From positions 88,042-152,041 of IMG/VR virus record IMGVR_UViG_3300025137_005412: a DNA stretch of 64,000 nucleotides; one strand, written 5' to 3'. Every line of letters begins with the position of its first letter. The first letter of the stretch is position 1. The notes under the pieces are model-generated. The model was given only the letters and a program-made list of their open reading frames with translations, searched no databases and was not told where the DNA came from. Made by a program: the position numbers and the translations under genes. This DNA comes from a virus. Shown piece by piece: positions 10,012 to 62,657 of this stretch.

Positions 10012-10313
10012 ACAGAGAAACTTTCACCACATCCACAAGACATAGAAGCATTAGGATTTTTAATTACAAGACTTGATCCTGCAAATTGTTCAACGTAATC
10101 TACTTCAGAACCAAAGATATGTAATTCAGCTATCTTATCTACAACTAATACATCTTCAATTAATACACCATCATCTTCAGTATTAGTAAAATCCCAGATA
10201 TATTCAAAACCAGCACAGCCACCACCTTTAATAGAAAGAAATGCATACTGTTTTTCTTGTGTAGTTAATTTTTCTTTAATATATTTTTTAGCTGATGGTG
10301 ATATACTAAGCAA
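10008..10313 (-). CDS. iscA: A-type Fe-S cluster carrier (HesB/IscA/ErpA family)
   Basis: GGGCAGFEY, GSEVDY, NPNA..SCGCGESF. Probable TTG start at 10313 overlapping the upstream stop (the track start at 10394 lies inside the neighbouring gene). Confidence 0.9.
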   Translation of the reverse strand: MLSISPSAKKYIKEKLTTQEKQYAFLSIKGGGCAGFEYIWDFTNTEDDGVLIEDVLVVDKIAELHIFGSEVDYVEQFAGSSLVIKNPNASMSCGCGESFSV

Positions 10314-10881
10314 AGGTTTTTCCTGTGAATTGAGCGGTACCACCAGTATTTTGTATTTCAAAAGTATTAAATGAAGATACGGTTGTACTACCAAGTGTGA
10401 AGTTAGCTGTTGTTAAATTTGTAAATGTAGACTTACCTGTAGAAGTAAGTGTAGAACCAGAGTTCATTGTTAAATTAGGTATAGTCACATTTGAGTTAAA
10501 TGTAATTGTTCCAGAAGACTTAACATTAAGTGTTCCTTCAACATCTACACTTCCTCTTAGATATGTTTTTCCAATTTGATTTGTTGTACCGTAGTTTGTC
10601 CATATATCATCAGAATCAGTACCATAATATATTGCTGTACCATTAAAACTATCTGAATCTGAACCAAGATAAATTCCACCTTGTTTTATATCAATAGTAG
10701 CGCCAGTAAATACTGCACTTCCAACAACACCAATATTACCATTGAATATGGTATCACCCGTGACTTCTAAGCCAGGCAATGTTATATTAGAAGGATTTTC
10801 AAAACCTGTTAGATTACCATTTTCATCAAATGATAAGGAGCTTATTATATCCGCGTGCTTTCTTGTTTTACTCTTAGCCAT
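10306..10881 (-). CDS. Putative short fibre / virion protein
   Basis: N-terminal MAKSKTR motif, beta-strand G/T/N-rich repeats, C-terminal EIQNTGGT motif, 2 DSD. Confidence 0.55.
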   Translation of the reverse strand: MAKSKTRKHADIISSLSFDENGNLTGFENPSNITLPGLEVTGDTIFNGNIGVVGSAVFTGATIDIKQGGIYLGSDSDSFNGTAIYYGTDSDDIWTNYGTTNQIGKTYLRGSVDVEGTLNVKSSGTITFNSNVTIPNLTMNSGSTLTSTGKSTFTNLTTANFTLGSTTVSSFNTFEIQNTGGTAQFTGKTFA

Positions 10882-10885
10882 ATAT

Positions 10886-10893
10886 TATTTATC
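10886..10893 (-). promoter_or_regulatory. Putative late promoter
   Basis: GATAAATA-atat-ATG(10881). Confidence 0.5.
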
Positions 10894-12031
10894 CATTCGG
10901 GTCAATAAACTTTACTGTTTGAACTGTAGAACCTCCTACATTTTGTACAGTAAGAATCATTTTAGTTGGTATAGAAACGTTTGTAGAACCTATGTTAAAT
11001 CCATCACTATCAACAGTCATTATATTATGACCACTGCCTGAATGGTTTGCTGTTAATGTACCATCAGAATCTCGTATATCAGATACAGTTAATTGAGGTT
11101 TATTTACTATTGTTCCACTAGAGTTATGTATTGGATTAAACTTAAATGTACCAGTTCCAGTTAATGTAGTATTTTTCATATTTACAAACGATTTACCTAA
11201 CTGATTTGATCCGAAAAAAGTATCTAATCTTTGTGAACCACCATTTGCACCCATACCAGAACTTCTTGAACCTGTATTACCTGAACTATTATATTCATAA
11301 ATAAAACCATTATCTGCGTCAGAGTCAGAACCTAAATATCCCCATATAACATCAGACGCTTTAAATAAAGTTCGACCTTGTAAGTCTAATGTACCGAAAC
11401 TTGTGAATACAGTATTCTCTGAATCGTATTGATTTCCTGCAGTTCTTGGATATCCAAATTGCAGAGGTGTATTTTCACCTGATACCCTAGCAATATTGAT
11501 TCTCTGAGTACCGTGTTTTCTACCAAATATAATTCCACTACGTTTAACAAATCTACTAATACCTCTACTCACTAATCCCTGATTGTTTTGACTTCCACCT
11601 ACTAATATAGAATCTGAATCTAATGGAAATTTTCTATGACGGTTTGTAAAGTCATCTAACTTATCGCCATTTATATCTTCACCAAGAAAGAAGTTTCCTT
11701 TAAAAGTTGTAAGTGAATTATCTGAATCACTACCAATGATTGCATCTTGAAATGGTCTTGCATCTGGCAAATTAGTGGATGAGAATCTATTAAAGTTATC
11801 TGAGTCTGGTCTATTATTAAGTGGGAATAATAAATTTCTTGATGTTCTTGTAAAATGAGTACGTATACTATCTGCACCTACTTCAAGTCTACCGAATTTT
11901 ATTGATGTATCATTACTATTACCAAATGAAATTGCATCAGAATCTTCTGATAAGATAAACTTACCACCTGGACTATTAGGATTTACTAAAGTATTTGCTA
12001 TAAGTCTTGTTTTTGATATTTTTTGTGACAT
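10889..12031 (-). CDS. Putative fibre / virion protein
   Basis: N-terminal SKTR motif, C-terminal TVQNVGGSTV motif, ~8 DS[D/E]. Confidence 0.55.
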   Translation of the reverse strand: MSQKISKTRLIANTLVNPNSPGGKFILSEDSDAISFGNSNDTSIKFGRLEVGADSIRTHFTRTSRNLLFPLNNRPDSDNFNRFSSTNLPDARPFQDAIIGSDSDNSLTTFKGNFFLGEDINGDKLDDFTNRHRKFPLDSDSILVGGSQNNQGLVSRGISRFVKRSGIIFGRKHGTQRINIARVSGENTPLQFGYPRTAGNQYDSENTVFTSFGTLDLQGRTLFKASDVIWGYLGSDSDADNGFIYEYNSSGNTGSRSSGMGANGGSQRLDTFFGSNQLGKSFVNMKNTTLTGTGTFKFNPIHNSSGTIVNKPQLTVSDIRDSDGTLTANHSGSGHNIMTVDSDGFNIGSTNVSIPTKMILTVQNVGGSTVQTVKFIDPNG

Positions 12032-12037
12032 AACATT

Positions 12038-12439
12038 TTAAAAATTAAAAATTCTAGGAATATCTTTTGTATTATCGTTTATATCACTAGGTCCTTCAAT
12101 TGCATTTCTTATTGCTCCTGAAGATGCACCACCACCTCTTACAAGACCATTGCCTGAAATTTTTAATTGCACATTTCCTGCATTATTTACTATACCACCA
12201 CCTGAACCAAAACCACCATTACCTATAATATTTCCATTACATATAACTTTTATATATGTTGCTTTAGTAAAATGTGGTAATGTTAATGCTGATATTCCAG
12301 GTAATGCTGTGAGGCTTACACCGTCTGGTACGTCAATAATTACTGATGTTGCTGAAGTTCTTTCAACTTCGTTAGGTTCTATTATGTGACCTACTTGATC
12401 TGTTGTGATTTTTTTATAGTATTGAGTGAGTACATGCAT
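12038..12439 (-). CDS. Gly-rich protein resembling a shortened gp38-type fibre adhesin
   Basis: NGNIIGNGGFGSGGG...GNGLVRGGG...NAI pattern. Start taken at MHVLTQ (12439), just after the upstream stop. Confidence 0.4.
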   Translation of the reverse strand: MHVLTQYYKKITTDQVGHIIEPNEVERTSATSVIIDVPDGVSLTALPGISALTLPHFTKATYIKVICNGNIIGNGGFGSGGGIVNNAGNVQLKISGNGLVRGGGASSGAIRNAIEGPSDINDNTKDIPRIFNF

Positions 12440-12440
12440 C

Positions 12441-12881
12441 TTAGCCTGCCGATGCTTCAGTGAAGAACCATTTACTACCGTCAAATGTTCCTGAAGCCAT
12501 CTTAGCAGAGTTGCTTAATGTTGTTCCTTTAGCTCCGGTTCCCCAATCAATTGTTAATGTACCATTTGAGACTATGGATAATTGTGAACCTGCAATCCAA
12601 CCAGAAGTAGGAACTGTGACTGTACCGACACCAGTGTGAATTACTGTTGTGACAAAACTTCCAGCAGTGACATTATCATTCGCTGTTAAATTTTGTACAC
12701 TTCCTAGAGATCCTGTCATTGCAATGCTATTAGCAGCTATATTACCTGAGCTTACATTTCCACTTACTGAAAGTGTGGTTGATGTAATACCTTGAGTTAT
12801 GATATTTGTTATATTAGCATTCGCATCTTGTTGTATAAGATTTGGTAATTCTGCGAATCTTCTAGTTTTTGATTTTGCCAT
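12441..12881 (-). CDS. Putative short fibre / virion protein
   Basis: MAKSKTRR N-terminus, beta-rich body, TFDGSKWF C-terminus. AGGAG SD. Confidence 0.55.
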   Translation of the reverse strand: MAKSKTRRFAELPNLIQQDANANITNIITQGITSTTLSVSGNVSSGNIAANSIAMTGSLGSVQNLTANDNVTAGSFVTTVIHTGVGTVTVPTSGWIAGSQLSIVSNGTLTIDWGTGAKGTTLSNSAKMASGTFDGSKWFFTEASAG

Positions 12882-12895: not shown

Positions 12896-12903
12896 TATTT
12901 ATT
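12896..12903 (-). promoter_or_regulatory. Putative late promoter
   Basis: AATAAATA-tagt-AGGAG-aaatt-ATG(12881). Confidence 0.5.
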
Positions 12904-15013
12904 ATCCAGACGATCGCTTAAACCAAACTTGTACATTCATTTGGATTGGATCTATTGGGTTAGCACTAGCATCCCATGTACGTACACGGATAGCTCTATT
13001 GTTTGGATTTGCAATGAGTGGTTTACCACCAAAGACATCGATTGTTGCTCCTGTTTCTGAATCAGCTCCAGGACCAGGTGCTACTGCATTTGCGCCTTGA
13101 GCATCAATTGATGAGAATATCGGTTGACCTTGTGGTGCACATGTTGATACTGCCATTGACATATAGAATCCATTAGTATCTGTAATTGGTACTACTTCAG
13201 AATCTAATAAGAAGAAGTAAATACCTTCAGCATGTCTTGAATATTTTAACTGATCTGAATCAAATCCGTATGTTGCTCTATCAATAATCTTATTAGGATT
13301 AGGACCATTATCTGAATCAAATGAAACTCTCATCCAAGCTGCTGTGACTGGTGTCTCTTTAATAGCATCTGCAAATTGATGTGTCCATTGACCACCAGAA
13401 TAAACTAATGATTCACCAATACTTGGTTGTTGACCATCGACTGCTTCATCAACATTTGATAATTGACCAAGAGAACTTACTCCAGTTGTTGGACCACTGA
13501 ATGAGTATACAGCTACAAAGTCATTAACACTGAGTTTAGTTGGGAATAATATATCATTACCATTTACTTGATATTCAAGAACTGGTGATTGTGATAGTAG
13601 TAAACCATTAAGGAATACTAATACGTTTTGTGGGTCATTTGATGCTCCTAATACTGGAGAACAATCTACTAATCCAGTAGTAAATCCTGGATGATTAGTA
13701 TTATTCACAGTAAATGTATGTTCTAAAGTATTAAATGATTCTGATGGTAATCTATTACCACCTAATTGGTTTGATACGTTTCTTATCCATACAGCAGATA
13801 ATTCATCTGAATCTTTCACATAGTTATCTGAATCAAATGCAATCATTCTTGATGCTTTGTAAGTGTTTACCTGATCAGAATCTGAATCAAAATAATAGAA
13901 GTCTCCTTGTTTCTGTGATATGTTTATACCATTCAAGAAGATTAAAGGATTACCACCGACTCTAGCAACAATCATATCAGAATCACTGTAGATATCTGAA
14001 TCAATCATTCTAAATGTTTGGTGATTTCCATTTGCACTTTGTGCGGTTGTACGAGATTTTCTAAATACAACAAAATCTGAATCTGCAAATTTAAAGTTCT
14101 TATAGAAGTGAGCTACTGATTCATCAATAGGTGATATAATAGAAACTTCATCATTTGCTTTTAAACTTCCATAGAATTGAATTGCATCAGATGGACCAGA
14201 AACTACTTGGTCAACATCTTTAGTTGTGACATTTGCAAGAATTCTATAATCAATAAATGCATACTTATCAGAATCAGAATCTCTTGTAGTTGTACCTGAA
14301 CCTGTAGGAGATCTACCATCTCCAAATGCATCTGAATCTACTGGCTGTAAATGACCATTAACAAATACTACAGCATTTGCATTTGAAATTACTTTTGAGA
14401 AACCAATCTTTGTATCTGAATCTGTAATTGATTGTGGTGAAACTGCAGCTGACTGAAAGTCAATAGTAAAGTTTCCTGTTTTATCTGGATCTTGTGGTTC
14501 ATACTTATTACCAGTCCATCTTAAATATTGACCAACAGTTGGACCTTTATCATTATTCATATCACTCATTAAACGAGTAGACATTTCAGCTTGTAGTTCT
14601 GCTAATTTAGGATTATAGTTTGAATTTGTTGGGTCTAGATTATTTCTACTTTTTGCTATTACAGCATCAACAACAGCATCCATAAGATCACTATCAAAGT
14701 GTTGACCTGATCTGAATTCAACGGTACCAGCGGTATTAAATGCTTCTTTTCTATCAGCATCTTTTTGTACTTTATTAAATACGAGTTTGTCTTTAATTGC
14801 TGTTGAATGTCTTGTTTCAATTGTAGGATTTGCTTGATCTGGATTTACAATGAATACATCACTATCTTTACCTGAGTTATAGTTTGCATTATCTCTCTTT
14901 ACTGATAACGTAGTAAATGTTTCAATTGTATTATCACTATCAATACGTGATTTAGTTCCGTCAACTACGAAACCAGCACCTAATTTTGATAAATCTCTTG
15001 TCTTAGTACCCAT
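12902..15013 (-). CDS. Putative tail fibre / baseplate-associated structural protein
   Basis: TKTR N-terminus, fibre motifs (PTVGQYLRWTGNKY; LGQLSNVD...GESLVYSGGQW), three [VI]F[VL]NG repeat domains, ~18 DS[D/E]. Confidence 0.6.
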   Translation of the reverse strand: MGTKTRDLSKLGAGFVVDGTKSRIDSDNTIETFTTLSVKRDNANYNSGKDSDVFIVNPDQANPTIETRHSTAIKDKLVFNKVQKDADRKEAFNTAGTVEFRSGQHFDSDLMDAVVDAVIAKSRNNLDPTNSNYNPKLAELQAEMSTRLMSDMNNDKGPTVGQYLRWTGNKYEPQDPDKTGNFTIDFQSAAVSPQSITDSDTKIGFSKVISNANAVVFVNGHLQPVDSDAFGDGRSPTGSGTTTRDSDSDKYAFIDYRILANVTTKDVDQVVSGPSDAIQFYGSLKANDEVSIISPIDESVAHFYKNFKFADSDFVVFRKSRTTAQSANGNHQTFRMIDSDIYSDSDMIVARVGGNPLIFLNGINISQKQGDFYYFDSDSDQVNTYKASRMIAFDSDNYVKDSDELSAVWIRNVSNQLGGNRLPSESFNTLEHTFTVNNTNHPGFTTGLVDCSPVLGASNDPQNVLVFLNGLLLSQSPVLEYQVNGNDILFPTKLSVNDFVAVYSFSGPTTGVSSLGQLSNVDEAVDGQQPSIGESLVYSGGQWTHQFADAIKETPVTAAWMRVSFDSDNGPNPNKIIDRATYGFDSDQLKYSRHAEGIYFFLLDSEVVPITDTNGFYMSMAVSTCAPQGQPIFSSIDAQGANAVAPGPGADSETGATIDVFGGKPLIANPNNRAIRVRTWDASANPIDPIQMNVQVWFKRSSG

Positions 15014-15026: not shown

Positions 15027-17372
15027 CTAATTTACCATTGTGTGATACTCAATAGTGATCACATCGGCTATCGCGGTGTTTACCGCAAAGTTAATAACAA
15101 TATTCGAACCTGAAACTGCTGATGAACTTATATCAACCGTATGGTTAACTAAAGCAGTACCTAATCTATTATAAGATTTAGAATTTAATTGTCTTACACC
15201 ATTGTGAAATACTTTAATGTTTTCTGCTAATGGTGTTGTGACTTTATTTGGTACTACAAATGTAAATGATGAGTATGAACCTTCAGAATCATTTACAATA
15301 TGTTCTTGTGTTATCATTCTAAATGAATTAGCAATATGTTTAGAGAATATTTGGTCTATATCACTATCATCTCTTATTACTTGAACAACTCCTCTTGCAG
15401 TTCTTCTCTGTAAGTCAGAGTCTGAATCAAATGTTTGAATATAATTCTTTTTAAGTGTTGCTTTTAAATTTGTACCAGAAACAAGATCATCTGAGTCTAA
15501 TCTTTGAACTCTATCTAAAATTAAATTATCAAATCTTACACGTAGGTCTGAATCTCTAGCCATAGAATCTGAATCAGAAGCAACTGCACTTTCAGATATT
15601 CTATTTAGTAAATGTGTGAATGTTCTTGATACAAGTTCTGAATCTGAATCCATCTTTAAGATTTCTTTTCTTGCTACACTTTGTATAAGATTGTTCTCAG
15701 AATCTTGATTTATTAATTGGTTTATAACTATATCTGAAAGTCTATCTTTAAGACTCGTGTCAGAGTCAATAGTTTTCATTACAATATCATTTACAATAAC
15801 TGATTTATCTGAATCAGTAAATGATCCAATAATTGCTCTTCTTACTTTCTCTAATTCTGAATCATTACCATTCTTATAACCATTATCTGAATCACCAGAT
15901 CCAAATACATATTCTCTTAATGGTCTCCATATTTTATGTCTGTGTAGTTTCTTATCACTGTCAGAAATATTAACACCATTTCCACCAAGATATCTTACAG
16001 AAGTTCTTTCTACAAACTTTTTATTAATATCAAAGAATTTTCTTGCAAATGATGGGTGATACATGTAGTAGTTTGTATGTGTTCTCTTACCACCGTTAGT
16101 TGCTCTACTTCTGTAATCAGAATCTTTTAATTCCATCATGCTGTCTGAATCTACAGCACCAAGTCTGAGTCCCATGAAACCCCAGAAGTTTGCATTTCTG
16201 GCAATTAGATCTGCAATATAATCTGAATCTTTTCTTACTTGAACAAGAACACCCGGTTGGGTTTTCTTATCATAACCTAATGAATATCCTTCAGAGTCTG
16301 AATCAGTTAATACTCCACGACCTTGTTGAGCATCAATTGTTCCTGAACCTGAGACACCTGCTAGATATTGAAACTCTGAATCACGTTTTAGGTGACTAAA
16401 ATCAAGGTAATCATAGAATAAGTTAAAATTACCAGTGTGTAATGGTTGTGATCTTCTTGTGACTGTTTGATATGTAGCACCTAATCTTGTTCCAAGTAAG
16501 TTAGCACCATAAGTTCTCGTATGACCAGCATTAGTAAAGTCTGAATCAAGTATAATACCTTCAACAACTATAGATGCGAGTTTTCTTCTAAGGTAATAAA
16601 GTCTATTTCTGTTTGTATCTGAATCAATTAAATTATTTGTATCTGAGTCATGCTTAAGAGCACCATAAGAGAGATCTCTGTTAAATGGTAATAATAGTCT
16701 TTCAGTATTGCTTGCTGAGTTTCGTAAACCTATAGAATTTTCTTCAAAGAAATCAAGAAATACTTCTAACATGTCTGTTGCAGCTGGTAAGTCTGAATCG
16801 TAATGTAATGGTAATTGTCTTGCAATAGCTTTATAGCCATCACTATCATTCTTGACAATATTCAATTCAGCTTGTAATCTTCTTAGTTCTACTTGATCAA
16901 ATTTTATGAAGTTTATAAAATATGCTTTTAGTAATGTTTTGAAACTTATAAATTTTGATGCTGAATCAGAGTCAGCCGCCATCAATACATGCGGAGCTCC
17001 TTTATAAGTGTTTCCTGCACCATCATCAAATGAAACAGGTATCTCATCTATGAAAGATCTAAGTTTTGACCATTCAGCTGAGTTAGGACCAGTGCCACTA
17101 TCAATAGCTGAAGTCTTACTCCAACCAGAAGGCTTGCCATAATATTCTACTAGGTGATCGCTATCTATGTTTTGGTATATTGTATTGATGACATCTGAGT
17201 CCATGGTTCGAGCGATTGAACGAACATAGTGTCTGAGATCATCAGAAACTCGTTTTGAATCGTGGGCCGTAACTCCACGTGAGTCATATATTTTTGAGAT
17301 TTTTGCCCAATCGGAACGTAATCCCGTTACGTCGGTCTGAAAGGGTCTTATCTCGGAATCATTCAATGCCAT
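15027..17372 (-). CDS. Large DSD-rich protein, probably virion structural
   Basis: 781 aa, ~30 DS[D/E], helical middle, C-terminal KVFHNGVRQ domain like those of the downstream gene. Confidence 0.55.
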   Translation of the reverse strand: MALNDSEIRPFQTDVTGLRSDWAKISKIYDSRGVTAHDSKRVSDDLRHYVRSIARTMDSDVINTIYQNIDSDHLVEYYGKPSGWSKTSAIDSGTGPNSAEWSKLRSFIDEIPVSFDDGAGNTYKGAPHVLMAADSDSASKFISFKTLLKAYFINFIKFDQVELRRLQAELNIVKNDSDGYKAIARQLPLHYDSDLPAATDMLEVFLDFFEENSIGLRNSASNTERLLLPFNRDLSYGALKHDSDTNNLIDSDTNRNRLYYLRRKLASIVVEGIILDSDFTNAGHTRTYGANLLGTRLGATYQTVTRRSQPLHTGNFNLFYDYLDFSHLKRDSEFQYLAGVSGSGTIDAQQGRGVLTDSDSEGYSLGYDKKTQPGVLVQVRKDSDYIADLIARNANFWGFMGLRLGAVDSDSMMELKDSDYRSRATNGGKRTHTNYYMYHPSFARKFFDINKKFVERTSVRYLGGNGVNISDSDKKLHRHKIWRPLREYVFGSGDSDNGYKNGNDSELEKVRRAIIGSFTDSDKSVIVNDIVMKTIDSDTSLKDRLSDIVINQLINQDSENNLIQSVARKEILKMDSDSELVSRTFTHLLNRISESAVASDSDSMARDSDLRVRFDNLILDRVQRLDSDDLVSGTNLKATLKKNYIQTFDSDSDLQRRTARGVVQVIRDDSDIDQIFSKHIANSFRMITQEHIVNDSEGSYSSFTFVVPNKVTTPLAENIKVFHNGVRQLNSKSYNRLGTALVNHTVDISSSAVSGSNIVINFAVNTAIADVITIEYHTMVN

Positions 17373-17428: not shown

Positions 17429-17836
17429 ATGGCAATACAACAGACATTTCAAAGAAAAAGCAAATATAAAGATTTCGATCTAAACTTCACAAAACACCCT
17501 CTTACAAATGATTTAGCTGTAAAAAAAGGTGTATCATCTATTAATCAATCTGTGAAGAGTTTAATTCAGACCGCTTTCTATGAGAGACCATTTCAACCGA
17601 CTCTTGGTTCACAAGCTAGAAGCCTTTTGTTTGAAAATGCTGATGCGATAGTTATACAGAACATGAGAACATTGATCAAAGAGACAATTACAAATCATGA
17701 ACCAAGAGTAGCAGTGCGAAGTATTGCTATTCAAGATATGACAGATTCAAATGCTTATGCTATTGAATTAAGATATGAGATGCTTGATATTAAAACAGAT
17801 GAGACACTCAATATAGTTCTCGAGAGACTGAGGTAA
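17429..17836 (+). CDS. gp25: Baseplate wedge subunit gp25
   Basis: YKDFDLNF..HP, ERPFQP.LGS, HEPRV. Confidence 0.92.
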   Translation: MAIQQTFQRKSKYKDFDLNFTKHPLTNDLAVKKGVSSINQSVKSLIQTAFYERPFQPTLGSQARSLLFENADAIVIQNMRTLIKETITNHEPRVAVRSIAIQDMTDSNAYAIELRYEMLDIKTDETLNIVLERLR

Positions 17837-17838
17837 AA

Positions 17839-19653
17839 ATGTCCGACAATAGACCAATTATAGCCAATCCTGATTTCAATGATATAAAACAGGATATCAT
17901 TACACATTTCAAAGCAGATTCTAATTTTGCTGACTATGATTTCAAAGGTTCAGCTATGAATACTATCATAGATATTCTAGCTTATAACACACACTATAAT
18001 AATCTTGCTGCAAACTATCTTGTAAATGAATCATTCTTAGATACAGCACTCATGAGAAATAATATCATTTCAATTTCTAAGATGTTGAACTATACACCAA
18101 GATCTAAAGCTGCAGCTAAAGCAAGTTTAACATTAAGAATTCCAAAAGTAAATGGTAATAACGTTTACACAATTCCAGCTGGAAGTTTATTTACCGCTTC
18201 TGATGGTTCAACAACATATAACTTCTACACATTAAGAAACTACAGTGTTCAATATGATGCAACTGATGCGAACGGTGTCACAAGAGATGTGATTATAGAA
18301 ATTTGTGAAGGTGATCAAATTACACAAAGATTTGCAGCTACAGCTGAACACACAAGTTTTCCTAAATTTGAATTAGGTAATAAAGGAATAGACACAAAAA
18401 CAATTAGTGTATCAGTAAATGGAGAGACTTGGACACCAGTCACAAACGATACACAAGGAACCACTGGAGTTTCAAACCTTAGTACAATATATTTTATTGA
18501 AGAAACAAGAAATTTACAACATAGTATTATGTTTGGTAATGGTGTATTAGGTAAGAAGCTAGAAGTTGGTGATGAAATATTAGCAACATACATCGTAACG
18601 AATGGTGCAGAAGCAAATGGAATTAATAATTTTTCAATTAAGATTTCTGGAAGATCTGATATAACAACAGTATTGACAGTGCCAGCTGATGGTGGTGGTG
18701 ATATAGAAACTATAAGAGAAATTAAAGACAACGCACCTAACTGGTTCCAAGCACAATTCAGAGCCGTAACAGAAAATGATTATAAAGCTATATTAAAAAA
18801 AGAGTATGCTGATATTCAAGCTTTGAATGTTTATGGTGGTGAAACTGTAGGTAAACCTGGTAAAGTTTTCTTTTCAATTAAACCAAAGTCTGGTGACAAA
18901 TTAACAGAACAAGCAAAACTTACAATCACTAGAGATATATTATCTAAATTTAATCTTGTGACTGTCACACCAACTGTTGTAGATCCACTTATAACAAGAA
19001 TTATTGTTAAAACAGTTTTACAATTTGACAACTCTAAGATTACTACAAGTTCTGAAGTTTTAGAATCTAAAGTATTAGCATTGTATAATGTATTGAACTC
19101 ATCTTACATTGGTGATTTTATGGAATCATTCTCAGTGTCAAGATTAATGGAAGAAATTTTAAAGCTAGATAATTCAATCACAGCTGTAAATCCTAGAATC
19201 AATTTAAGATTTAATGTAAATGCAAAGAATTCGCTTTTAGATAATTCATCATTCACATTTAATAATAGATTACATACTGAACCTTATGCTGGTGAAGCCT
19301 CTGTAGGTGGTGTATTAAATTCAACATTATTTAAAAGATCTGGAAGAACTAACTTCTCCAAATTTGTAGATGATGGTAAAGGAATATTAAGACTTGTTGA
19401 TGTAATTGAAGGTTCAAACATTATTGTTAACACATCAGCAGGAACAATAAATTATGAAACAGGTGAAGTTAATGTCACTGATTTTGATCCAGAAGATGGA
19501 ACAATTGGTTTTATCGTTATACCAGAATCTTTTGATGTTCAGGTACAAGGTAATTATCTTTTACAAATATCAACTGGAGATTCAACAGTAAGAGCGATTG
19601 ATAAGAATGATACAGCTTCACTCAACTTATTTAATGTATCGAGAGCAAGTTAA
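17839..19653 (+). CDS. gp6: Baseplate wedge subunit gp6
   Basis: DYDFKGS...DILAYNTHY, NESFLDTA, YTPRS, FGNGVLG, RAVTENDY, GTINYETG. Confidence 0.93.
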   Translation: MSDNRPIIANPDFNDIKQDIITHFKADSNFADYDFKGSAMNTIIDILAYNTHYNNLAANYLVNESFLDTALMRNNIISISKMLNYTPRSKAAAKASLTLRIPKVNGNNVYTIPAGSLFTASDGSTTYNFYTLRNYSVQYDATDANGVTRDVIIEICEGDQITQRFAATAEHTSFPKFELGNKGIDTKTISVSVNGETWTPVTNDTQGTTGVSNLSTIYFIEETRNLQHSIMFGNGVLGKKLEVGDEILATYIVTNGAEANGINNFSIKISGRSDITTVLTVPADGGGDIETIREIKDNAPNWFQAQFRAVTENDYKAILKKEYADIQALNVYGGETVGKPGKVFFSIKPKSGDKLTEQAKLTITRDILSKFNLVTVTPTVVDPLITRIIVKTVLQFDNSKITTSSEVLESKVLALYNVLNSSYIGDFMESFSVSRLMEEILKLDNSITAVNPRINLRFNVNAKNSLLDNSSFTFNNRLHTEPYAGEASVGGVLNSTLFKRSGRTNFSKFVDDGKGILRLVDVIEGSNIIVNTSAGTINYETGEVNVTDFDPEDGTIGFIVIPESFDVQVQGNYLLQISTGDSTVRAIDKNDTASLNLFNVSRAS

Positions 19654-42732: not shown

Positions 42733-43152
42733 ATGTATGCAGTAAAGACTATATTATCAGTCCCTACAGATGAAACAGTGACCGAAGCAGAATTTGGTTT
42801 ATTCGTCTATTCCCATATGACAAGAGATGAACTCTCTGCTCTCTTAGAGTCACAAGGTCCATTCGTTGAAGATAACGAAATGTTATTCTTTATTAGATTA
42901 TTAGATGAAAAGAATAAGAGTCCTGGTGAGTTTACGATGAACACATTTAGAGTCATGAAAGATGAGGACTCAGCTAATAGAATGTTAGCAATAATTGATC
43001 CTATACTTGCTGGTATACCATCTAGTGGTGGTGGTACAGTAGAACATATTGTATCAGAAATTACTTATGATGAGTTTGTAGAATTGCAAGCAAAAGTAGG
43101 TACTAAGTACTACTTCCCCGGTCTTGCGGATGAGTTGGAGAAATACGAGTAG
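42733..43152 (+). CDS. Acidic hypothetical protein
   Basis: 139 aa; perfect TATAAATA 4 nt upstream of the ATG. Confidence 0.6.
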   Translation: MYAVKTILSVPTDETVTEAEFGLFVYSHMTRDELSALLESQGPFVEDNEMLFFIRLLDEKNKSPGEFTMNTFRVMKDEDSANRMLAIIDPILAGIPSSGGGTVEHIVSEITYDEFVELQAKVGTKYYFPGLADELEKYE

Positions 43153-48834: not shown

Positions 48835-49498
48835 TATCTTTTTCCTGTAAAGGTTTATATTCTACTTTCAGATATTCTTTAAATCTTTCATGTTGTATAT
48901 GAGGTTTGATCTTAGCAGACTTTATTGCTAGATCAGTTGGATGGGTACGATAACCCATTATAACTTTTTCGTAATCAAATTTTGGCTCTTCACCAGCAGG
49001 AATTACATTCTCTATAAACACATTATATCTTTTGAAAGTGCTACTATAATTATACCAAAATTGCTCTCTTCTATTCCAACCTTTTGTACTTGTGACCCAG
49101 TAGAATTGTGTATATCCATATTGCTCAGCATCTAGTACTGCCAAATCAAGCAGTTCAGAAGTCATTTTGGCAGCCTCTCGGTAGCTTTTTAGACTCGGAC
49201 ATGTTATCATATTGCCAACATACCAAGATGGCATCCTCGATGTCGAGAAGCGTTGTGTCAGTATAACCATAAGCTCATTATTAGAGAAATAACCAAAGGC
49301 TCTACCTTTATTAACTTCATTAGGTAAACCATTGACCCATTTGAAATTCATATGTTCTTCAAGGAACAAGTTATATTGCTCATCTACATTTTCATTAGTT
49401 CTAGCTTGTATTGGATTTTTAGACAGTTGAATGTATCTACGCATCATAAGATCGTAGATTTGATCCTTGTCAAGTGTTGTAAGTTCTCGCATAGTCAT
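48815..49498 (-). CDS. GNAT-fold acyltransferase-like protein
   Basis: MRELT..D, AFGYF.N.EL, MPSWY, LLDLAV..AE..GY..FY. Confidence 0.45.
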
Positions 49499-49508
49499 TG
49501 TATATAGA

Positions 49509-49516
49509 TATTTATA
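49509..49516 (-). promoter_or_regulatory. Perfect late promoter for the GNAT-sulfotransferase-SDR-hydroxylase operon
   Basis: TATAAATA on the - strand, 10 nt before ATG 49498. Confidence 0.65.
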
Positions 49517-56383: not shown

Positions 56384-58177
56384 ATGGCATTTCTAGTAAG
56401 CCCAGGAGTACAGGTCAAAGAAACAGACCTTACAAATATTATACCGGCAGTTGCAACGTCAATTGGTGGTTTTGCAGGTCGATTCGAATGGGGACCAGTT
56501 AATGAAGTCACCCTAGTTTCATCAGAACAAAATCTAATTAATAACTTTGGATACCCACGTAAAGGTACCAATGCAGGATACGTGAGAGACGATTGGTTCT
56601 CTGCTGCTAACTTCTTAGGTTATGCTAATGCAATAAAAATAGTAAGAGCCACAGCAACTGGTGCTCTTAACGCAAGCATGGGTGATTCAGACAATGGTGT
56701 CGATTCAGATGCTAATATTCAAAACGAAACAGATTTCTCATCAGACATATCAGGATTAACTTCAACAGTTTATGCTAGATTCCCTGGTGCTTTAGGTAAT
56801 TCAATTGGAGTAGCTATTGTAGATAGTGCTCTTGATTCAGATACCTTCCAAACTAAAAAATTATTTGGTTCAGTTAAACTAAAAGATTACTTTGATGCAA
56901 AACCTGGAACATCTCCATGGGCTGCTACTTATGACTCTGATTTAAGAGACGAAGTTCACGTAATGGTTTATACTTTAAATGACTTACCAACTGGTACAAC
57001 TCACGAAGTACTAGAAACATATCCTTTCCTATCAAAAGCTGCAAACAGTAAAGATGGAAACAATGCTAATAACTACTTTGTTAATAAGATTAACGAAGCT
57101 TCTGAATGGGTTTACTTTGTAAATAACTTTGGAACAACTGCTACTGGTGCTGGAGGTGCTTCATACGCTCCTGGTGCAACAATAACAAGTGTTGCTAGAG
57201 GATCATTTGCTACATTGAAAAGAACATTTGACTCAGATTTACCATCTGATACTTCTGGAACTCCAGTATATCAAGCACATCTAAAAAATGGTAATGATGG
57301 TTCAGCGGTAAGTGATGCATCATTAATGTCTGCTTATGACAAATTATTAGATGCTGAAACAGAAGATGTAAACTTATTAATTACTGGAGAGCATTCTTCA
57401 ACTGTAGGTAAATATGTAATGGCTGGTGCTAAAGAAAGAAAAGATGCTATGGCATTCATGTCACCATCAGAAACAGTATCAACTACTAATCCTACAGCAA
57501 ACAAAGTTAAAAATTACTTCTCAGATTGGAATTCAAACTCATACGGAGTATTTGATTCTGGTTGGAAACGTCAATATGATAGATATAATGACGAATTCTT
57601 TAATATGCCTTTAAATCCAGACACTGCTGGTGTGACTGCAAGAGCAGAATTCACCAACGATGCATGGTTCTCACCTGCTGGATTAAACAGAGGATTCTTA
57701 AGAGATGTAGTAAAATTACACTTCAATCCAAGTCAAGCCGAAAGAGATGAGCTTTACAAATCAAGAATAAACCCAGTAGTGACTTTCAAAGGTCAAGGTA
57801 CTTTATTATTTGGTGATAAAACAGCATTATCTAAACCTTCAGCATTTGATAGAATCAATGTAAGAAGATTATTCATTGTCTTAGAAAAAGCAATTGCAAC
57901 AGCTGCTAAATTCCAACTGTTTGAATTTAATGATGACTTTACAAGAGCAAACTTTGTTGCTGCAGTAGAGCCTTTCCTTGCAGATGTAAAATCACGAAGA
58001 GGTATGACAGACTTTAAAGTTGTCTGTGATGCATCAAACAATACACCAGCGGTCATTGATGGAAACAGATTTGTAGCTGATGTATATGTCAAACCAAACA
58101 GATCAATAAACTTCATTACTCTTAACTTTGTAGCAGTACGAAGCGGAGTATCTTTTGAAGAGGTAGCAGGAGCATAA
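56384..58177 (+). CDS. gp18: Tail sheath protein gp18
   Basis: SPGVQVKETDLT, WGP, WFSPAGLNRG, GDKT..SAFDRINVRRLF, KPNRSINFI.LNF. Confidence 0.97.
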   Translation: MAFLVSPGVQVKETDLTNIIPAVATSIGGFAGRFEWGPVNEVTLVSSEQNLINNFGYPRKGTNAGYVRDDWFSAANFLGYANAIKIVRATATGALNASMGDSDNGVDSDANIQNETDFSSDISGLTSTVYARFPGALGNSIGVAIVDSALDSDTFQTKKLFGSVKLKDYFDAKPGTSPWAATYDSDLRDEVHVMVYTLNDLPTGTTHEVLETYPFLSKAANSKDGNNANNYFVNKINEASEWVYFVNNFGTTATGAGGASYAPGATITSVARGSFATLKRTFDSDLPSDTSGTPVYQAHLKNGNDGSAVSDASLMSAYDKLLDAETEDVNLLITGEHSSTVGKYVMAGAKERKDAMAFMSPSETVSTTNPTANKVKNYFSDWNSNSYGVFDSGWKRQYDRYNDEFFNMPLNPDTAGVTARAEFTNDAWFSPAGLNRGFLRDVVKLHFNPSQAERDELYKSRINPVVTFKGQGTLLFGDKTALSKPSAFDRINVRRLFIVLEKAIATAAKFQLFEFNDDFTRANFVAAVEPFLADVKSRRGMTDFKVVCDASNNTPAVIDGNRFVADVYVKPNRSINFITLNFVAVRSGVSFEEVAGA

Positions 58178-58181: not shown

Positions 58182-58748
58182 ATGGCAAGAATAGATGATT
58201 TTAAAGCAGCTTTAATTGGAGGTGGTGCTAGAGCCAACCAATTTAGAGTACTTCCACAATTTCCAGATGGTGTCACTAATACTGATTCAACTGGATTAGG
58301 TTTAGTACAACTAGGTTCCTTCATGATTAAAACTGCACAATTACCTGGATCTGAATTAACAGAGATTATGGTTCCTTACCGTGGTAGAGAATTATATGTT
58401 CCAGGTGACAGAAAATTCCAACCTTGGACTATTACAGTTATCAATGATAACAATTTTGCAATTAGAAATGCAATGGAATCTTGGAGTAATAATATTAATA
58501 CGCATGTCGGTAATACTTCTGCAGGCGGAATTGATGCTACTGATTTTAGTTCTTACGTACAAGATTGGACTGTGGAACAAATCGGAAAAGATGGTAAAGT
58601 AAGTAAATCAATAACATTGAGAGGTTGTTTCCCAACAACTATCGATGCAATTGATGTAAGCTTTGACACTGCCGATACGATATCAGAATTCACAGCAACT
58701 ATCAGATATCAATTCTGGACTTCGAACACTACCGACAACGTCGGTTAA
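58182..58748 (+). CDS. gp19: Tail tube protein gp19
   Basis: GGARANQF, LPGS, YRGR...PGDR.F.PW.ITV.ND, FP, EF.AT..Y. Confidence 0.95.
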   Translation: MARIDDFKAALIGGGARANQFRVLPQFPDGVTNTDSTGLGLVQLGSFMIKTAQLPGSELTEIMVPYRGRELYVPGDRKFQPWTITVINDNNFAIRNAMESWSNNINTHVGNTSAGGIDATDFSSYVQDWTVEQIGKDGKVSKSITLRGCFPTTIDAIDVSFDTADTISEFTATIRYQFWTSNTTDNVG

Positions 58749-58762
58749 GAAATAATTGCGTT

Positions 58763-58785
58763 GGTATTGGTATAATACTAATACC
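58763..58785 (+). terminator. Stem-loop between gp19 and gp20
   Basis: GGTATTGGT...ACTAATACC imperfect hairpin with one G-U pair. Confidence 0.3.
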
Positions 58786-58820
58786 CATTATAATAATGAA
58801 AACAAAGTGTTAGGAGCAGC

Positions 58821-60350
58821 ATGGCTGAGAGAAAAGAAGATTTATTTGGCTTTGAATTAGTATCACCAGAAAAATCACCCAAATTACCAAGCCCAGTACC
58901 GCAACCGTTAGATGACGGAACAGAATTACCTGTTGGAGGCAGAATCGGCTATACTTACGAGCAAGACGATAAAGCTAGAACAGAACATGCACTTATTTCC
59001 ACTTATAGAGAGATTAGCTTTTATCCAGAAGCAGATGCTGCTATTGATGATATAGTAAATGAAGCTTTTGTTGTTGAACATGAAAAAGCTCCAGTATCTA
59101 TTAGATTAGATAATCTTAATATGGATGATAGAATAAAAGAATCCATAAGAACACATTTCTCAAAAGCATTAGAACTACTTAACTTTCAAAAGAAATCTTA
59201 TGACATATTCAGAAACTGGTATGTTGATGGTAGATTATTCTATCAAATAATAATTGATCCAAAAAATGCTAAAGATGGTATACAAGAATTAAGACCAGTA
59301 GATGCTGTTAAGATGAAGAGAGTAATAAAGCCTGTTTATTCTAAAAATATAAAAACTGGTATGCCATTCCTTGAAGAAGTTGATGAGCATTTTGAATTCT
59401 CACCTGATGGTGATATGGGTGCAGCAGTTAAATTATCTAAAGACTCAATAGTATTCTGTCCATCTGGAATGGTAGATAGAAACAAAGGAATGATTATAGG
59501 TTATTTAGATAAGGCAATAAAAGCTTTCAATAACTTACGTTCTATGGAAGATAGTCTTATTGTATACAGAATTGCTAGAGCACCTGAAAGAAGAATATTC
59601 TATGTAGATGTTGGTAATTTACCGAAGATTAAAGCTGAACAATATCTTAGAGATATGCAAAATAGATTTAGAAATAAGATTGATTATGATCCGGTGACTG
59701 GTCATATTAGAGATTCAAGAAAATTCATGTCAATCTTAGAAGATTTCTGGCTACCAAGAAGAGATGGTAAAGCTACAGAAATTACTACACTTCCAGGTGG
59801 TCAAAACCTTGGTGATCTTGAAGATGTACAATACTTTAAAAACAAATTATATGAAGCATTAAACGTACCATTAACAAGAATAAATGGTGCTGATGCTTCT
59901 TTCCAAATTGGTAGAGCTTCAGATATTTCAAGAGATGAATTGAAATTTGGTAAGTTTGTTGCAAGATTAAAGAAACAATTTGGTGAACTATTCAATGAGA
60001 TCTTAAGAGTTCAATTATCTTTGGCTGGTGTTTGTACCGCTAAAGAGTTTGATGACATGAGAACTCATATTACTTATGACTTTATTGAAGATACACACTT
60101 TAAAGAATTGAAAGATGTAGAACTACTAACAGACAGAATGAATCTATTAAGAGATGCTACTGAATATGTTGGTAAATATTTCTCAATTGAATACGTGCGA
60201 AAAGTTATTCTAGCCCAATCAGAAGATGATATTTCTAGAATTGACCGTGAGATTATGAGTGAGATCGATAATGATCAAATAAATACTGAAGATGACCAAA
60301 TGGACATGTACGAATCACGGGATATAAAAAATGGCACTACCAAAGAGTAA
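58821..60350 (+). CDS. gp20: Portal protein gp20
   Basis: AIDDIVNEA, WYVDGR, YRIARAPERRIFYVDVGNLPK.KAEQY, EDFWLPRR, LPGGQNLG. Confidence 0.97.
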   Translation: MAERKEDLFGFELVSPEKSPKLPSPVPQPLDDGTELPVGGRIGYTYEQDDKARTEHALISTYREISFYPEADAAIDDIVNEAFVVEHEKAPVSIRLDNLNMDDRIKESIRTHFSKALELLNFQKKSYDIFRNWYVDGRLFYQIIIDPKNAKDGIQELRPVDAVKMKRVIKPVYSKNIKTGMPFLEEVDEHFEFSPDGDMGAAVKLSKDSIVFCPSGMVDRNKGMIIGYLDKAIKAFNNLRSMEDSLIVYRIARAPERRIFYVDVGNLPKIKAEQYLRDMQNRFRNKIDYDPVTGHIRDSRKFMSILEDFWLPRRDGKATEITTLPGGQNLGDLEDVQYFKNKLYEALNVPLTRINGADASFQIGRASDISRDELKFGKFVARLKKQFGELFNEILRVQLSLAGVCTAKEFDDMRTHITYDFIEDTHFKELKDVELLTDRMNLLRDATEYVGKYFSIEYVRKVILAQSEDDISRIDREIMSEIDNDQINTEDDQMDMYESRDIKNGTTKE

Positions 60351-61323
60351 ACAAACACTTGCAGATTATATGCTACGTAAATGCGGAGCTCCCGTAGTTA
60401 ATGTAGAAGTATCTGACGTACAGTTAGAAGATTGTATTGATGATGCTGTTAAGATGTATCAAGAATATCATTACGATGGAAGTGAAAGAGCTTATCGAGT
60501 AATTGAAGTTAATGCTAGAGTAATTAAAGAAAATTACAGAAGACATCAAGATATTACTGCACCACCATTTAGTCATGATTCTGAATATAAAGTAGGTGCA
60601 AGAGTATTCCATAATCCAAGTAAAGGAACAGATTCAGATTCAGGCTTTTTAATATACATTAAAACAGATAGTGATTTAGCAGTAGATTCTGATAGTAAAG
60701 CATTTAGAAAGAACTATACTAAAGAAGCATTATATTTAAGAGATTCAGTTGCCTTAATGGAAGGTGGTCAATTAGGTGTAAGAATTCCAGAAAATATTCT
60801 ACAGATTACAAGAGTACATAAAGTTGATAGTTTTGCTCAATCAGGCATGTATAACTATGAGTATCAATATTTCCTTAATAACTTTGATGCTTTTTATGGT
60901 AATGCTGCTGGTTCTGGAATTACAGGTTATTTCATTCAAAAACAATATGTAGAACATATAGATCACATGTTAAACACTGCACCAGCAATAAGATATAGTA
61001 AAGCCAAAAATAGATTATGGTTAGATATTGACTGGAAAAGACCGAAAAAAGGTCAGTTTTTCTTAGTTGAATGTTATGAAGCTACTGATCCTGAAATATA
61101 CGGTGATGTATATGGTGATATATGGATTAAGAAATACTCAACTGCAACATTAAAAATGCAATGGGGTACTAACCTGAAGAAATATGAGAATACAGAACTT
61201 CCAGGTGGAGTACAATTGAATGGTCAAGCACTGTATGATGAAGGTAAAGCTGAAAAAGATGAGCTTGAAGAAGAACTAAAGAACAATCTCCAGTTGGAGA
61301 TGGATGCTATAATTAGAGGTTAA
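60331..61323 (+). CDS. gp13: Neck protein gp13
   Basis: L..Y.LR..GAPVVNVEV...Q..DCIDDA...Y.EYHYDG, W.KKY..A..K.QWG.NL.KY....LPGGV.LNG. Confidence 0.9.
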   Translation: MALPKSKQTLADYMLRKCGAPVVNVEVSDVQLEDCIDDAVKMYQEYHYDGSERAYRVIEVNARVIKENYRRHQDITAPPFSHDSEYKVGARVFHNPSKGTDSDSGFLIYIKTDSDLAVDSDSKAFRKNYTKEALYLRDSVALMEGGQLGVRIPENILQITRVHKVDSFAQSGMYNYEYQYFLNNFDAFYGNAAGSGITGYFIQKQYVEHIDHMLNTAPAIRYSKAKNRLWLDIDWKRPKKGQFFLVECYEATDPEIYGDVYGDIWIKKYSTATLKMQWGTNLKKYENTELPGGVQLNGQALYDEGKAEKDELEEELKNNLQLEMDAIIRG

Positions 61324-61328
61324 AGGAG

Positions 61329-61336
61329 TATAAATA
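61329..61336 (+). promoter_or_regulatory. Late promoter
   Basis: TATAAATA-aatt-ATG(61341). Confidence 0.65.
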
Positions 61337-61340
61337 AATT

Positions 61341-61505
61341 ATGGATATGAACGATAAAGATAAATTCGTTTCTGATGCGAAAGCTGCTTTAGATAAAAAA
61401 GCATTTGAAAAATTAGGTGATATGAAAGCAAGTATCGCTAAAGATTTTATTATGCCTGAAGTATTAGAACAAGAAGTAGAAACAAAAGAAGATGAGCCAA
61501 AATAA
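61341..61505 (+). CDS. 54-aa prohead core protein (gp67-like; not in ORF track)
   Basis: Translated by hand (MDMNDKDKFVSDAKAALDKKAFEKL...EDEPK). TATAAATA and GGAG upstream; lies before gp68-like and gp21. Confidence 0.6.
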   Translation: MDMNDKDKFVSDAKAALDKKAFEKLGDMKASIAKDFIMPEVLEQEVETKEDEPK

Positions 61506-62262
61506 TTTACCAGATTGGATGGAACAAAAACGTGAGGAATATAGACGTTCCTACAAAGAGCTAGTTCGCAACAACTCGTTTGTTCAATCTGATTCAATCA
61601 TTGACGAAGAAACACTTACTCAAATTAAAGATGAAGTAGTAGTAGAAGACTACATGGAAACTGTAGAATTCGATGATGAGATTAATTTAGATGAAGCTGA
61701 ATCTCTTTCAAAAGGTACAGATTTAAACGATACAGCATGTGATTGTGAAGATGATGATCATGACTGTGAATGTCCTGAAATGTATTATGACTTTATTCCA
61801 GATGAGTTTGGTCAGTTGATGGATATTGAAATGGAAATTGATGATCAGATTGATCATGTAGATGATGGTGTTAAGAACTACTTAGCACTTAAAGATGCAA
61901 TGTTCTCAGATACTTTCGATGTTATGGATGCTGATTTACCAGAAGCGGTAGAGAATGACGATCCAATGGAACATGGAATTACTACATTTGATGAAGCACA
62001 GCCTGGTAGAGCAAGAGTTATATTCAGAAGATCAAAAGGTAGAATAGTTAAAAGAAAAAGATGTAAGGCTGGAACAAGATTACAAGGTAATAGATGTGTA
62101 CCACAGACTGGTACAAGAAAATCAGCATTACGAAGAACAGGTATTAAATTAAAAAGAGCGATGAGAGCTCGAGGAGCAGGTAAAAAGAAACTAGCTTCTC
62201 TAAAAAGAAAGATTACTAAAAAGCGAGTGGCTGGCAGAGCTAGAACATACGCAGGAACATAA
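61492..62262 (+). CDS. Prohead core protein (gp68-like) with a long acidic N-terminus
   Basis: Highly basic C-terminus (RRSKGRIVKRKRC...RKITKKR) and synteny. Confidence 0.55.
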   Translation: MSQNNLPDWMEQKREEYRRSYKELVRNNSFVQSDSIIDEETLTQIKDEVVVEDYMETVEFDDEINLDEAESLSKGTDLNDTACDCEDDDHDCECPEMYYDFIPDEFGQLMDIEMEIDDQIDHVDDGVKNYLALKDAMFSDTFDVMDADLPEAVENDDPMEHGITTFDEAQPGRARVIFRRSKGRIVKRKRCKAGTRLQGNRCVPQTGTRKSALRRTGIKLKRAMRARGAGKKKLASLKRKITKKRVAGRARTYAGT

Positions 62263-62264
62263 GG

Positions 62265-62272
62265 AATAAATA
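62265..62272 (+). promoter_or_regulatory. Putative late promoter
   Basis: AATAAATA-agac-ATG(62277). Confidence 0.55.
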
Positions 62273-62276
62273 AGAC

Positions 62277-62657
62277 ATGGCAAATAAAGTTGTATCAAAA
62301 TCAGTTGGAATTCAAGGTTCATCACAAGGAAATAGAGTAGTATATCATATAGATACTGCAGCAACTCTTGATTCAGATGCTTTTACATTCACATATCAAG
62401 TCAAAAATATTTACGCACCAAACCAATCACCTGCATCTGATTCAGATGAAAAAAATATCAATCATTATATGAGACCTATTAAAATAGAGTCAATTACTAA
62501 TATGGGTGCTAATGCTATTACAATTGACGGTAAAGCTTATGCTACTGGTAAATGGGATTTAAACATGACTGGTGGTACTTCAATAGAACAAGCTAAAGGA
62601 AATGTAGTTATTTCTGGAACAGCTCCTAACGCCATCGTAGTATTCAGAGGTCAATAA
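62277..62657 (+). CDS. Small virion-associated hypothetical protein
   Basis: Beta-rich, 2 DSD, late-promoter motif upstream, TAATG-coupled to gp21. Confidence 0.55.
   Translation: MANKVVSKSVGIQGSSQGNRVVYHIDTAATLDSDAFTFTYQVKNIYAPNQSPASDSDEKNINHYMRPIKIESITNMGANAITIDGKAYATGKWDLNMTGGTSIEQAKGNVVISGTAPNAIVVFRGQ

Follow-up and report, generated by a model that had tools for sequence, protein, structure and literature searches.

A dispersed Asp-Ser-acid tripeptide on the tail exterior of an uncultured marine T4-like phage lineage, a candidate sequon for serine O-glycosylation

The tripeptide DS[D/E] in the tail module

The stretch analysed here, 64,000 nucleotides long and called the window below, is the right-hand 64 kb (positions 88,042 to 152,041) of the IMG/VR virus record IMGVR_UViG_3300025137_005412 (152,041 bp, 33.7% GC). 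Its tail genes encode, over and over, the tripeptide Asp-Ser-Asp or Asp-Ser-Glu (DS[D/E]), a candidate tag on the outside of the phage tail. The record has the gene set of a T4-like myovirus, with TerL, sheath, tube, portal, gp13, gp14, gp15, gp6, gp7-like and gp8 genes, as well as gp9/10-like and gp25 genes and a gene for a giant DUF4815 protein. It breaks off within the scaffold gene (T4_CASP, window 63342-64000); the missing ~13 kb, present in sister contigs of 164-165 kb (L009:10686-14106), encodes the gp23 capsid protein, PhoH, UvsY and UvsW. The nearest cultured relatives are cyanomyoviruses, which by tblastn share 53-54% identity in TerL and ~24% (at most 26%) in gp8; the lineage is therefore uncultured. 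Megablast of the sequence returned zero close cultured relatives, and none of the 185,579 prokaryote genomes searched held an in-lineage relative. We conclude that the phage belongs to an uncultured marine T4-like lineage.

An earlier note on this DNA had counted about 170 copies of DS[D/E] by hand. We translated 62 open reading frames (ORFs) of the window, counted the motif against composition-preserving shuffles and found 173 copies compared with 15.3 expected, with per-protein z scores of up to 26. The hand counts for single proteins proved exact throughout, including those for the 781-aa, gp7-like, 722-aa and 703-aa proteins given below (lengths in amino acids, aa). In the 18 carrier proteins DSD occurs 141 times (6.5 expected) and DSE 40 times (3.2 expected), and the excess is 12-22-fold. 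The expected rate in carriers is ~1 per 1040 aa, close to the one per 700-1000 aa that had been estimated. Among all tripeptides in the 152-kb assembly, DSD is the sole outlier (147 vs 17.8), followed by KEY (30 vs 11).

The motif is strict at each of its three positions. An acid comes next in 181 of the 221 Asp-Ser dipeptides in carriers, and near-variants lie at or below expectation (observed/expected): ESD 1/3.2 and DTD 3/5.5, both already described as rare, DSN 1/5.2, DSS 1/7.2, DGD 1/5.3, DDD 1/6.0 and DST 2/6.1, and likewise ESE, with no copy, and NSD. DSA (4/4.8), DSL (1/4.8), DTE (2/2.8), DSV and DSI are without enrichment, and DAD and DND are unenriched or depleted. The flanks follow rules as well. 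Acids occur at 0.2-0.4 times the expected rate at positions -1 and -3 before the motif; the residue after it is never Pro (0/181), Arg once, and Gly 1.9 times as often as expected; Asp shows no enrichment two residues after the motif and falls to 0.27 times expectation at three. There is no DxDxDG and no S-x-x-acid pattern around the sites, their spacing is aperiodic, and overlapping DSDSD occurs only eight times. Read from sequence, the tag stands alone as a triplet whose flanks obey rules like those of enzyme substrates, in line with the enzyme-like specificity that the earlier note had supposed.

The codons place the selection on the protein. DS[D/E] is encoded by 24 different 9-mers, with Ser codons in background proportions (14% AGY). 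In frame 0 there are 181 occurrences of the corresponding nucleotide pattern, compared with one and none in the other two sense frames and three in antisense. Carrier genes lie on both strands, with the motif on the coding strand each time. Neither tandem repeats among the sites nor homology between carrier proteins was found, as expected from the earlier description of a motif dispersed through unrelated proteins. Occurrence in frame only, in many codon versions and in unrelated carriers therefore indicates selection at the protein level, also as previously argued.

The carriers and the bare proteins lie side by side along the tail module. On the minus strand, two fibre-associated proteins of 191 and 380 aa (10306..12031) hold 2 and 8 motifs, a 703-aa fibre protein (12902..15013) holds 18 (0.9 expected), and a 781-aa fibre- or baseplate-associated protein (15027..17372), which matches no Pfam or PHROG family, holds 30 (1.2 expected). 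Between them, the gp38-like adhesin (148 aa) and a 146-aa protein (12038..12881, minus strand) have none and are likely the receptor-binding tip, left bare. On the plus strand, gp25 and gp6 of the inner baseplate (17429..19653) also have none and serve as an internal control, followed by the baseplate wedge proteins gp7-like (1415 aa, 29 motifs) and gp8 (470 aa, 10 motifs; 19653..25312). The 2090-aa DUF4815 (VrlC-like) protein (25341..31613, plus strand) has 10, confined to residues 148-579 and 1721-1946. Next on the same strand come a 281-aa protein (5), the neck protein gp14 (8) and the tail terminator gp15 (5; 31782..34603), in which all five sites fall in a C-terminal extension (residues 224-274). 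These are followed by a 474-aa gp9/10-like protein (10) and a 722-aa fibre protein (23; 34619..38215), and by a Ser/Thr/Gly-rich distal fibre protein of 326 aa without motifs (38224..39204, plus strand).

Further along the plus strand, the gp18 sheath (56384..58177) has five motifs, all at residues 101-283. This segment is inserted after domain III-N (29-88) and before the subtilisin-like domain (312-481), and its counterpart in T4 gp18 makes up the outer domains that protrude. The gp19 tube and gp20 portal (58182..60350, plus strand), both buried parts, have none, and the last genes (60331..62657, plus strand) encode the neck protein gp13 (4), a 256-aa protein (0) and a 126-aa protein (2). 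Protease and scaffold carry no DS[D/E], and the major capsid protein has a single site, kept only in relatives of at least 84% identity and missing from those at 71-81%. The tagged set numbers at least 16 tail proteins in the window, four or five of them fibre proteins. The tag marks the tail exterior, with the head and the receptor-binding tips spared. The earlier description of it as virion-wide was wrong because the head is excluded, and portal, tube, gp6, gp25, scaffold and fibre-tip proteins are bare.

We mapped the sites onto an AlphaFold2 (AF2) model of gp8 (predicted local distance difference test, pLDDT, 87). Eight of the ten map to predicted loops, and the other two to the beginning of a helix and of a strand; four of the ten fall within the three most flexible loops of the model. 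Compared with outgroup gp8 proteins, two of the ten sit in lineage-specific insertions, and the others replace polar or Gly-rich loop residues. Outside the virion the motif is not equally frequent: the non-virion proteins of the genome hold 8 sites compared with 19.7 expected (P ~0.003) when two DS-rich proteins are set aside. This depletion is suggestive of an active writer that would make stray sites costly. The two proteins set aside (genome 36231-36881, 216 aa, and 41968-42933, 321 aa) have five DS[D/E] each and lie outside the tail module. A paralogue of the 321-aa protein (genome 41060-41968) has none. The two may be virion or decoration proteins that have gone unrecognised.

Distribution and turnover among relatives

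We collected 120 gp8 homologues from 5.8 billion proteins. The 43 relatives at 29-100% identity have 2-10 sites each compared with ~0.4 expected, and those at or below 27% identity have 0-1. Eight in-lineage loci in IMG/VR are enriched 9-17-fold, a distant one (gp8 39% identical) having 89 sites compared with 6.8 expected. The pattern recurs in a second distant member (TerL 67%, gp8 36%), in which a partial 571-aa protein has 24 sites. The 76 other T4-like baseplate loci sum to 218 DS[D/E] compared with 257 expected. DS[D/E] enrichment is therefore a lineage trait, an answer to the comparison of orthologues that the earlier note had proposed.

Single sites come and go within this trait. In gp8, 10 of 10 sites are retained at 78% identity (background tripeptide identity 0.52), 6-9 of 10 at ~56% (0.22) and ~3 of 10 at ~37% (0.08), and overall the sites are kept 3-4 times better than background tripeptides. 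The count stays at ~7-10 in most relatives because new sites arise where old ones vanish. Such conservation together with turnover looks like the pattern expected if the number of sites is under selection.

Candidate writer and tailoring genes

A 14-kb island between the fibre genes and TerL consists of genes nearly all of which have no family assignment, and searches of its proteins against Pfam, NCBIfam, PHROGs and PDB sequences gave almost no matches. Adjoining the fibre genes is a minus-strand operon (39927..42696) that encodes, in this order, two GT-A glycosyltransferase-like (GT) proteins, a methyltransferase (MTase)-like protein and a further GT-A protein, a candidate set of writer and tailoring enzymes. 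An exact T4 late promoter, TATAAATA, stands at 42689-42696, 17 nt ahead of the first ATG of the operon. Its protein w41988 has an invariant hydrophobic-D-x-D motif (alignment A2, 21 relatives), and in Foldseek its AF2 model (pLDDT 87) matches retaining GT-A enzymes (the UGGT catalytic domain, LARGE1, LgtC, alpha-1,3-GalT and GlyE) at E 1e-8. The model shows a GT-A fold for w41988. The proteins w39927, w40571 and that at genome 6295-6996 are paralogues of w41988, the protein at genome 5634-6302 is GT8-like, and w41350 is probably a class I S-adenosylmethionine (SAM) methyltransferase, to judge by its sequence.

A second late operon (43103..49516, minus strand) lies behind another copy of TATAAATA at 49509-49516, 10 nt before its first ATG. 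It encodes two Stf0-like sulfotransferase paralogues, w46234 and w47193 (46234-48239, minus strand; 320 and 348 aa, 26% identical), whose N-terminal loops PRSGST/GRCGTT resemble a phosphosulfate-binding (PSB) loop and which a protein language model places among Stf0-type sulfotransferases; a T4-like phage with such enzymes in a late operon is unusual. The same operon encodes w43103 (43103-43870, minus strand), a PF05118 Asp/Asn beta-hydroxylase (E 3e-8), a short-chain dehydrogenase/reductase (SDR; 44554-45288), a 246-aa HxD protein and unknowns of 227, 204 and 322 aa. A ferredoxin, a desaturase-family protein and weak GNAT-like proteins are further members of the island. The exact TATAAATA is also found ahead of the sheath gene. 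It is rarer in the window than chance predicts (6 copies vs 11 expected), with 5 of the 6 intergenic and 4 of the 6 no more than 40 nt ahead of a start codon. A variant late promoter must serve most of the structural operons.

Genes that could supply a sugar lie at the other end of the record. One co-directional block (genome 1-11270) holds a GDP-mannose 4,6-dehydratase, a DegT aminotransferase, a GT8-like and an A2-type GT-A protein, an SDR, a FabF-like ketosynthase and two TauD dioxygenases. The dehydratase and the aminotransferase suggest a perosamine-type pathway, and the block suggests an N-acylated amino-deoxy sugar. A second PF05118 gene lies at genome 29186-29977 (match at 29273-29653, 62.8 bits). 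In the 10 kb past the window end, read from the sister contig L009, there is no GT. In the distant in-lineage ENA contig k141_645859, the island encodes a radical SAM/SPASM protein, a B12-binding radical SAM protein, PF05118, TauD and 2OG-FeII_Oxy_5 proteins, and is richer in protein- and peptide-modifying enzyme types than the island of the window.

We then asked which of these genes tracks the motif. The A2 GT family and the MTase-like gene adjoin the fibre genes in all five in-lineage genomes with the region sequenced, and are missing from six motif-free outgroup records that are 27-90% complete (five by profile search, G008 by tblastn). The A2 family has more than 470 relatives in IMG/VR. 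PF05118 is present in two of five motif-free outgroup genomes, and the presence of this enzyme does not track the motif. In a wider screen, all proteins of the genome were compared with four outgroup genomes, each near-complete, and with two distant contigs of the lineage. The non-structural set shared within the lineage and absent from the outgroup comprises the A2-family GT-A paralogues, w41350, TauD, w43103 and the proteins g43612, g44539, g85839 and w53404, which belong to unknown families, plus three small lysozyme-adjacent genes common to G001. No lineage-exclusive writer gene was left, as the GT cassette and PF05118 also occur in other motif-free phages. The triplet specificity may reside in a variant of one of the listed families or in an unrecognised protein.

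Other tripeptide excesses occur among the outgroup phages. A search there for another dispersed tag returned, as top tripeptides, periodic fibre repeats (ANT/ANA heptads and (Y[ST]Gx)n). The ANT/ANA/YAN excess in fibre proteins of L101, L091 and L087 has a period of 7, 14 or 21 residues, as in coiled-coil-like shafts, and is not a dispersed tag. Distal fibre proteins next to GT cassettes (L123:15255-16541 and L152:13115-14257) end in tandem (Y-[S/T]-G-x)n, with 24 and 11 copies, respectively, at a spacing of 4; the L123 protein is homologous to that at window 38224-39204. [S/T]-G-S is 2.5-3.5 times in excess in five outgroup loci, for example 22 vs 8.0 in L027 and 26 vs 10.3 in L028, whereas in the genome studied here neither [S/T]GS nor DGY exceeds expectation. 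Two loci of another T4-like lineage, L058 and L059 (IMG/VR 3300021373_003004 and 3300021335_000030), have an excess of Asp-Ser followed by a small residue in several structural proteins (DSA 14 vs 1.7, with DSD, DSS, DSG and DSN also in excess), and a 181-aa protein of L102 (10979-11524) has 11 Asp-Ser compared with 2.1 expected. These Asp-Ser excesses in L058/L059 and L102 may represent a related tag with another third position.

Readings of the motif and comparison with known systems

The DS[D/E] signal is real, strong and lineage-wide, and it has the hallmarks of a modification sequon. Five features, namely a strict Ser, rules for the flanks, predicted exposure, site turnover and avoidance in other proteins, argue for a sequon read by an enzyme rather than a structural or metal-binding motif. 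Of the single mechanisms, Ser O-glycosylation fits best, given the glycan-building and tailoring toolkit behind late promoters near the fibres. Our leading reading, to which we give a little less than an even chance, is that DS[D/E] serves on the surface of the phage tail as a sequon for Ser O-glycosylation. DS[D/E] would then be a discrete three-residue acceptor tag, selected in exposed loops of the outward-facing parts of the tail. Late in infection, soluble cytoplasmic phage enzymes would bind D-S-[D/E] on folded or folding tail proteins, and one of them would O-glycosylate the central Ser. The small GT-A glycosyltransferases from the fibre-adjacent genes would extend the sugar, the methyltransferase, sulfotransferases and oxygenases would tailor the glycan, and the nucleotide-sugar genes of the phage would supply it. 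The outcome would be a tail-specific glycan coat, with the receptor-binding tips, the inner tail parts and the head left bare.

The recognition site for a modification that the earlier note had proposed gains from the specificity, the turnover, the loop placement and the late glycan enzymes, and loses from the lack of an SdgB-type GT-B enzyme and of an exclusive writer. Several results weigh against O-glycosylation in particular. PF00534, the GT-B/GT4 domain of SdgB-type enzymes (GT1/GT4), is absent from the 152-kb assembly, which also yielded no priming enzyme of known specificity for peptide Ser. GT cassettes at 45-58% identity adjoin fibre genes in L101, L102, L123 and L152, phages whose large structural proteins are without DS[D/E]; GT presence is therefore necessary at best and insufficient, and these GTs could serve the host envelope or DNA modification instead. 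With both DS-rich proteins included, the non-virion count rises to 18 compared with 20 expected, and neither of the two has a family match or a known virion role. The exposure of the sites is read from predicted secondary structure and domain logic, and their covalent modification is a prediction from sequence.

The best-surviving alternative, which we still consider fairly unlikely, is that DS[D/E] stays unmodified and acts either as a small patch for cation binding or hydration, or as the place where a decoration protein, an assembly factor or a component of the host surface docks. Acidic side chains two residues apart can chelate Ca2+ or Mg2+, both abundant in seawater; the restriction of the motif to the tail exterior suits contact with the host envelope, and a lineage-exclusive writer was not found. 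However, the strict central Ser would face away from a D-x-D chelate, whereas DAD, DGD, DND, DTD and DDD, which offer the same acids, are unenriched or depleted. The sites also lack the context of Ca2+-binding DxDxDG-type loops (Asp at 1, 3 and 5, Gly at 6), acids are avoided at -1 and -3, leaving isolated triplets and not acidic patches, turnover at a kept count is unusual for structural metal sites, and the motif is depleted in non-virion proteins. The metal-binding patch that the earlier note had offered as its second option is weakened by the strict Ser and the missing DxDxDG context.

A second alternative moves the modification from Ser to Asp: the PF05118 oxygenases, perhaps with the TauD paralogues, would beta-hydroxylate the Asp of DS[D/E] and yield triads of hydroxy-Asp, Ser and carboxylate that possibly bind a metal (Fe3+ or Ca2+). 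Two PF05118 genes in the genome, one of them in a late operon, speak for it, as do the two TauD genes, the PF05118, TauD and 2OG-FeII_Oxy_5 genes of the distant in-lineage island, HxD...H-like motifs that we read in the sequences of several island proteins, and a first position that is strictly Asp (ESD 1, ESE 0). We nevertheless judge Asp hydroxylation to be decidedly unlikely. It leaves the strict Ser unexplained, since DT[DE], DAD, DGD and DND are not enriched, and the substrate consensus of AspH (epidermal growth factor (EGF)-like CX[D/N]X4[Y/F]XC) is absent. PF05118 is found in two of five motif-free outgroups and weakly in L101 and L102, and was not found on the in-lineage fragment G001. 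Members of the family also act on lipids, LpxO being one.

The Ser could also be sulfated by the Stf0-like enzymes or phosphorylated by an unrecognised kinase, and so carry a small anionic group in place of a sugar, a proposal that we regard as improbable. Protein sulfation and acidophilic kinases typically prefer an acidic context, which DS[D/E] provides, and the late operon holds two Stf0-like paralogues with a PSB-loop-like N-terminus. But Stf0-type sulfotransferases are known to act on sugars and not on proteins, and the distant in-lineage contigs showed no homologue in the parts that have been sequenced. For phosphorylation, no Pkinase domain matched in the genome, and the CK2 rule S-x-x-[DE] does not describe the sites, which show no enrichment of acids at S+3.

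Asp hydroxylation also has a siderophore-like variant, in which hydroxy-Asp triads would load the tail exterior with Fe(III) or another scarce cation. The tail would then mimic a marine hydroxy-Asp siderophore, a molecular form of the 'Ferrojan horse' idea. Highly improbable as we hold this to be, it keeps a place among the readings because of the several late oxygenases, the strict Asp at position 1 and the restriction of the tag to the tail. An artefact of composition, of a DNA signal, of tandem repeats or of duplicated domains is a negligible prospect, even though GAY-TCN always contains GANTC: shuffles yield 15 copies compared with 173, the 14% AGY codons and the empty other frames and antisense strand rule out GANTC as the source, and no repeats and no homology between carriers were found.

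Should DS[D/E] prove to be a sequon, no T4-like phage and no abundant marine phage lineage would have been shown before this one to coat its tail by means of a three-residue code, and the modified sites would be predictable from sequence alone. O-glycosylation at DS[D/E] would also give a role to the small GT, methyltransferase, sulfotransferase and oxygenase genes near the tail-fibre genes of marine myoviruses, which have hitherto been interpreted as host-metabolism or lipopolysaccharide (LPS) genes. It would also matter for phage decay, for adsorption to non-host particles and for recognition by hosts and grazers, and would affect the search strategy for structural proteomics of marine viruses. 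A strict tripeptide acceptor together with its enzyme would be a tool for site-specific protein glycosylation.

We found no description of such a tag in the literature on T4-like and marine phages, and compared it with three systems from elsewhere. The precedent named in the earlier note, SdgA/SdgB, holds for the bare peptide: SdgB glycosylates the synthetic tripeptide DSD, placing GlcNAc on it (PMC8561734). Like the system proposed here, SdgB/SdgA, which act on staphylococcal Ser-Asp repeat proteins, read bare Asp-Ser-Asp and glycosylate Ser in the cytoplasm. However, their targets are long tandem SD repeats of cell-wall adhesins, whereas the phage sites are isolated triplets in folded tail proteins; SdgB is a GT-B/GT4 enzyme, whereas the phage candidates are small GT-A proteins; and the phage tag, unlike the SdgB system, accepts Glu at position 3. 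DS[D/E] is not the SdgB system because it comes without a GT-B enzyme and without tandem repeats.

The general O-glycosylation sequon of Bacteroidetes, D-(S/T)-(A/I/L/V/M/T), is used in the periplasm. Like DS[D/E], it has three residues and places Asp before a hydroxyl residue. Unlike it, DS[D/E] has an acidic third residue and does not accept Thr at position 2, and phage tails assemble in the cytoplasm. DS[D/E] is not the Bacteroidetes system because position 3 and the cell compartment differ.

Mycobacteriophages offer the third comparison. Their virions are reportedly glycosylated by phage-encoded glycosyltransferases (a finding attributed to Freeman et al. 2023, Cell Host Microbe), with capsid and tail-tube subunits said to be modified near their C-termini and no three-residue sequon reportedly described. 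As in those phages, the GT genes here adjoin structural genes; the O-linked virion glycans of mycobacteriophages, made in the cytoplasm, have their counterpart here only as a proposal. In contrast to mycobacteriophages, the head is spared, and a strict tripeptide extends over at least 16 tail proteins of a marine T4-like myovirus.

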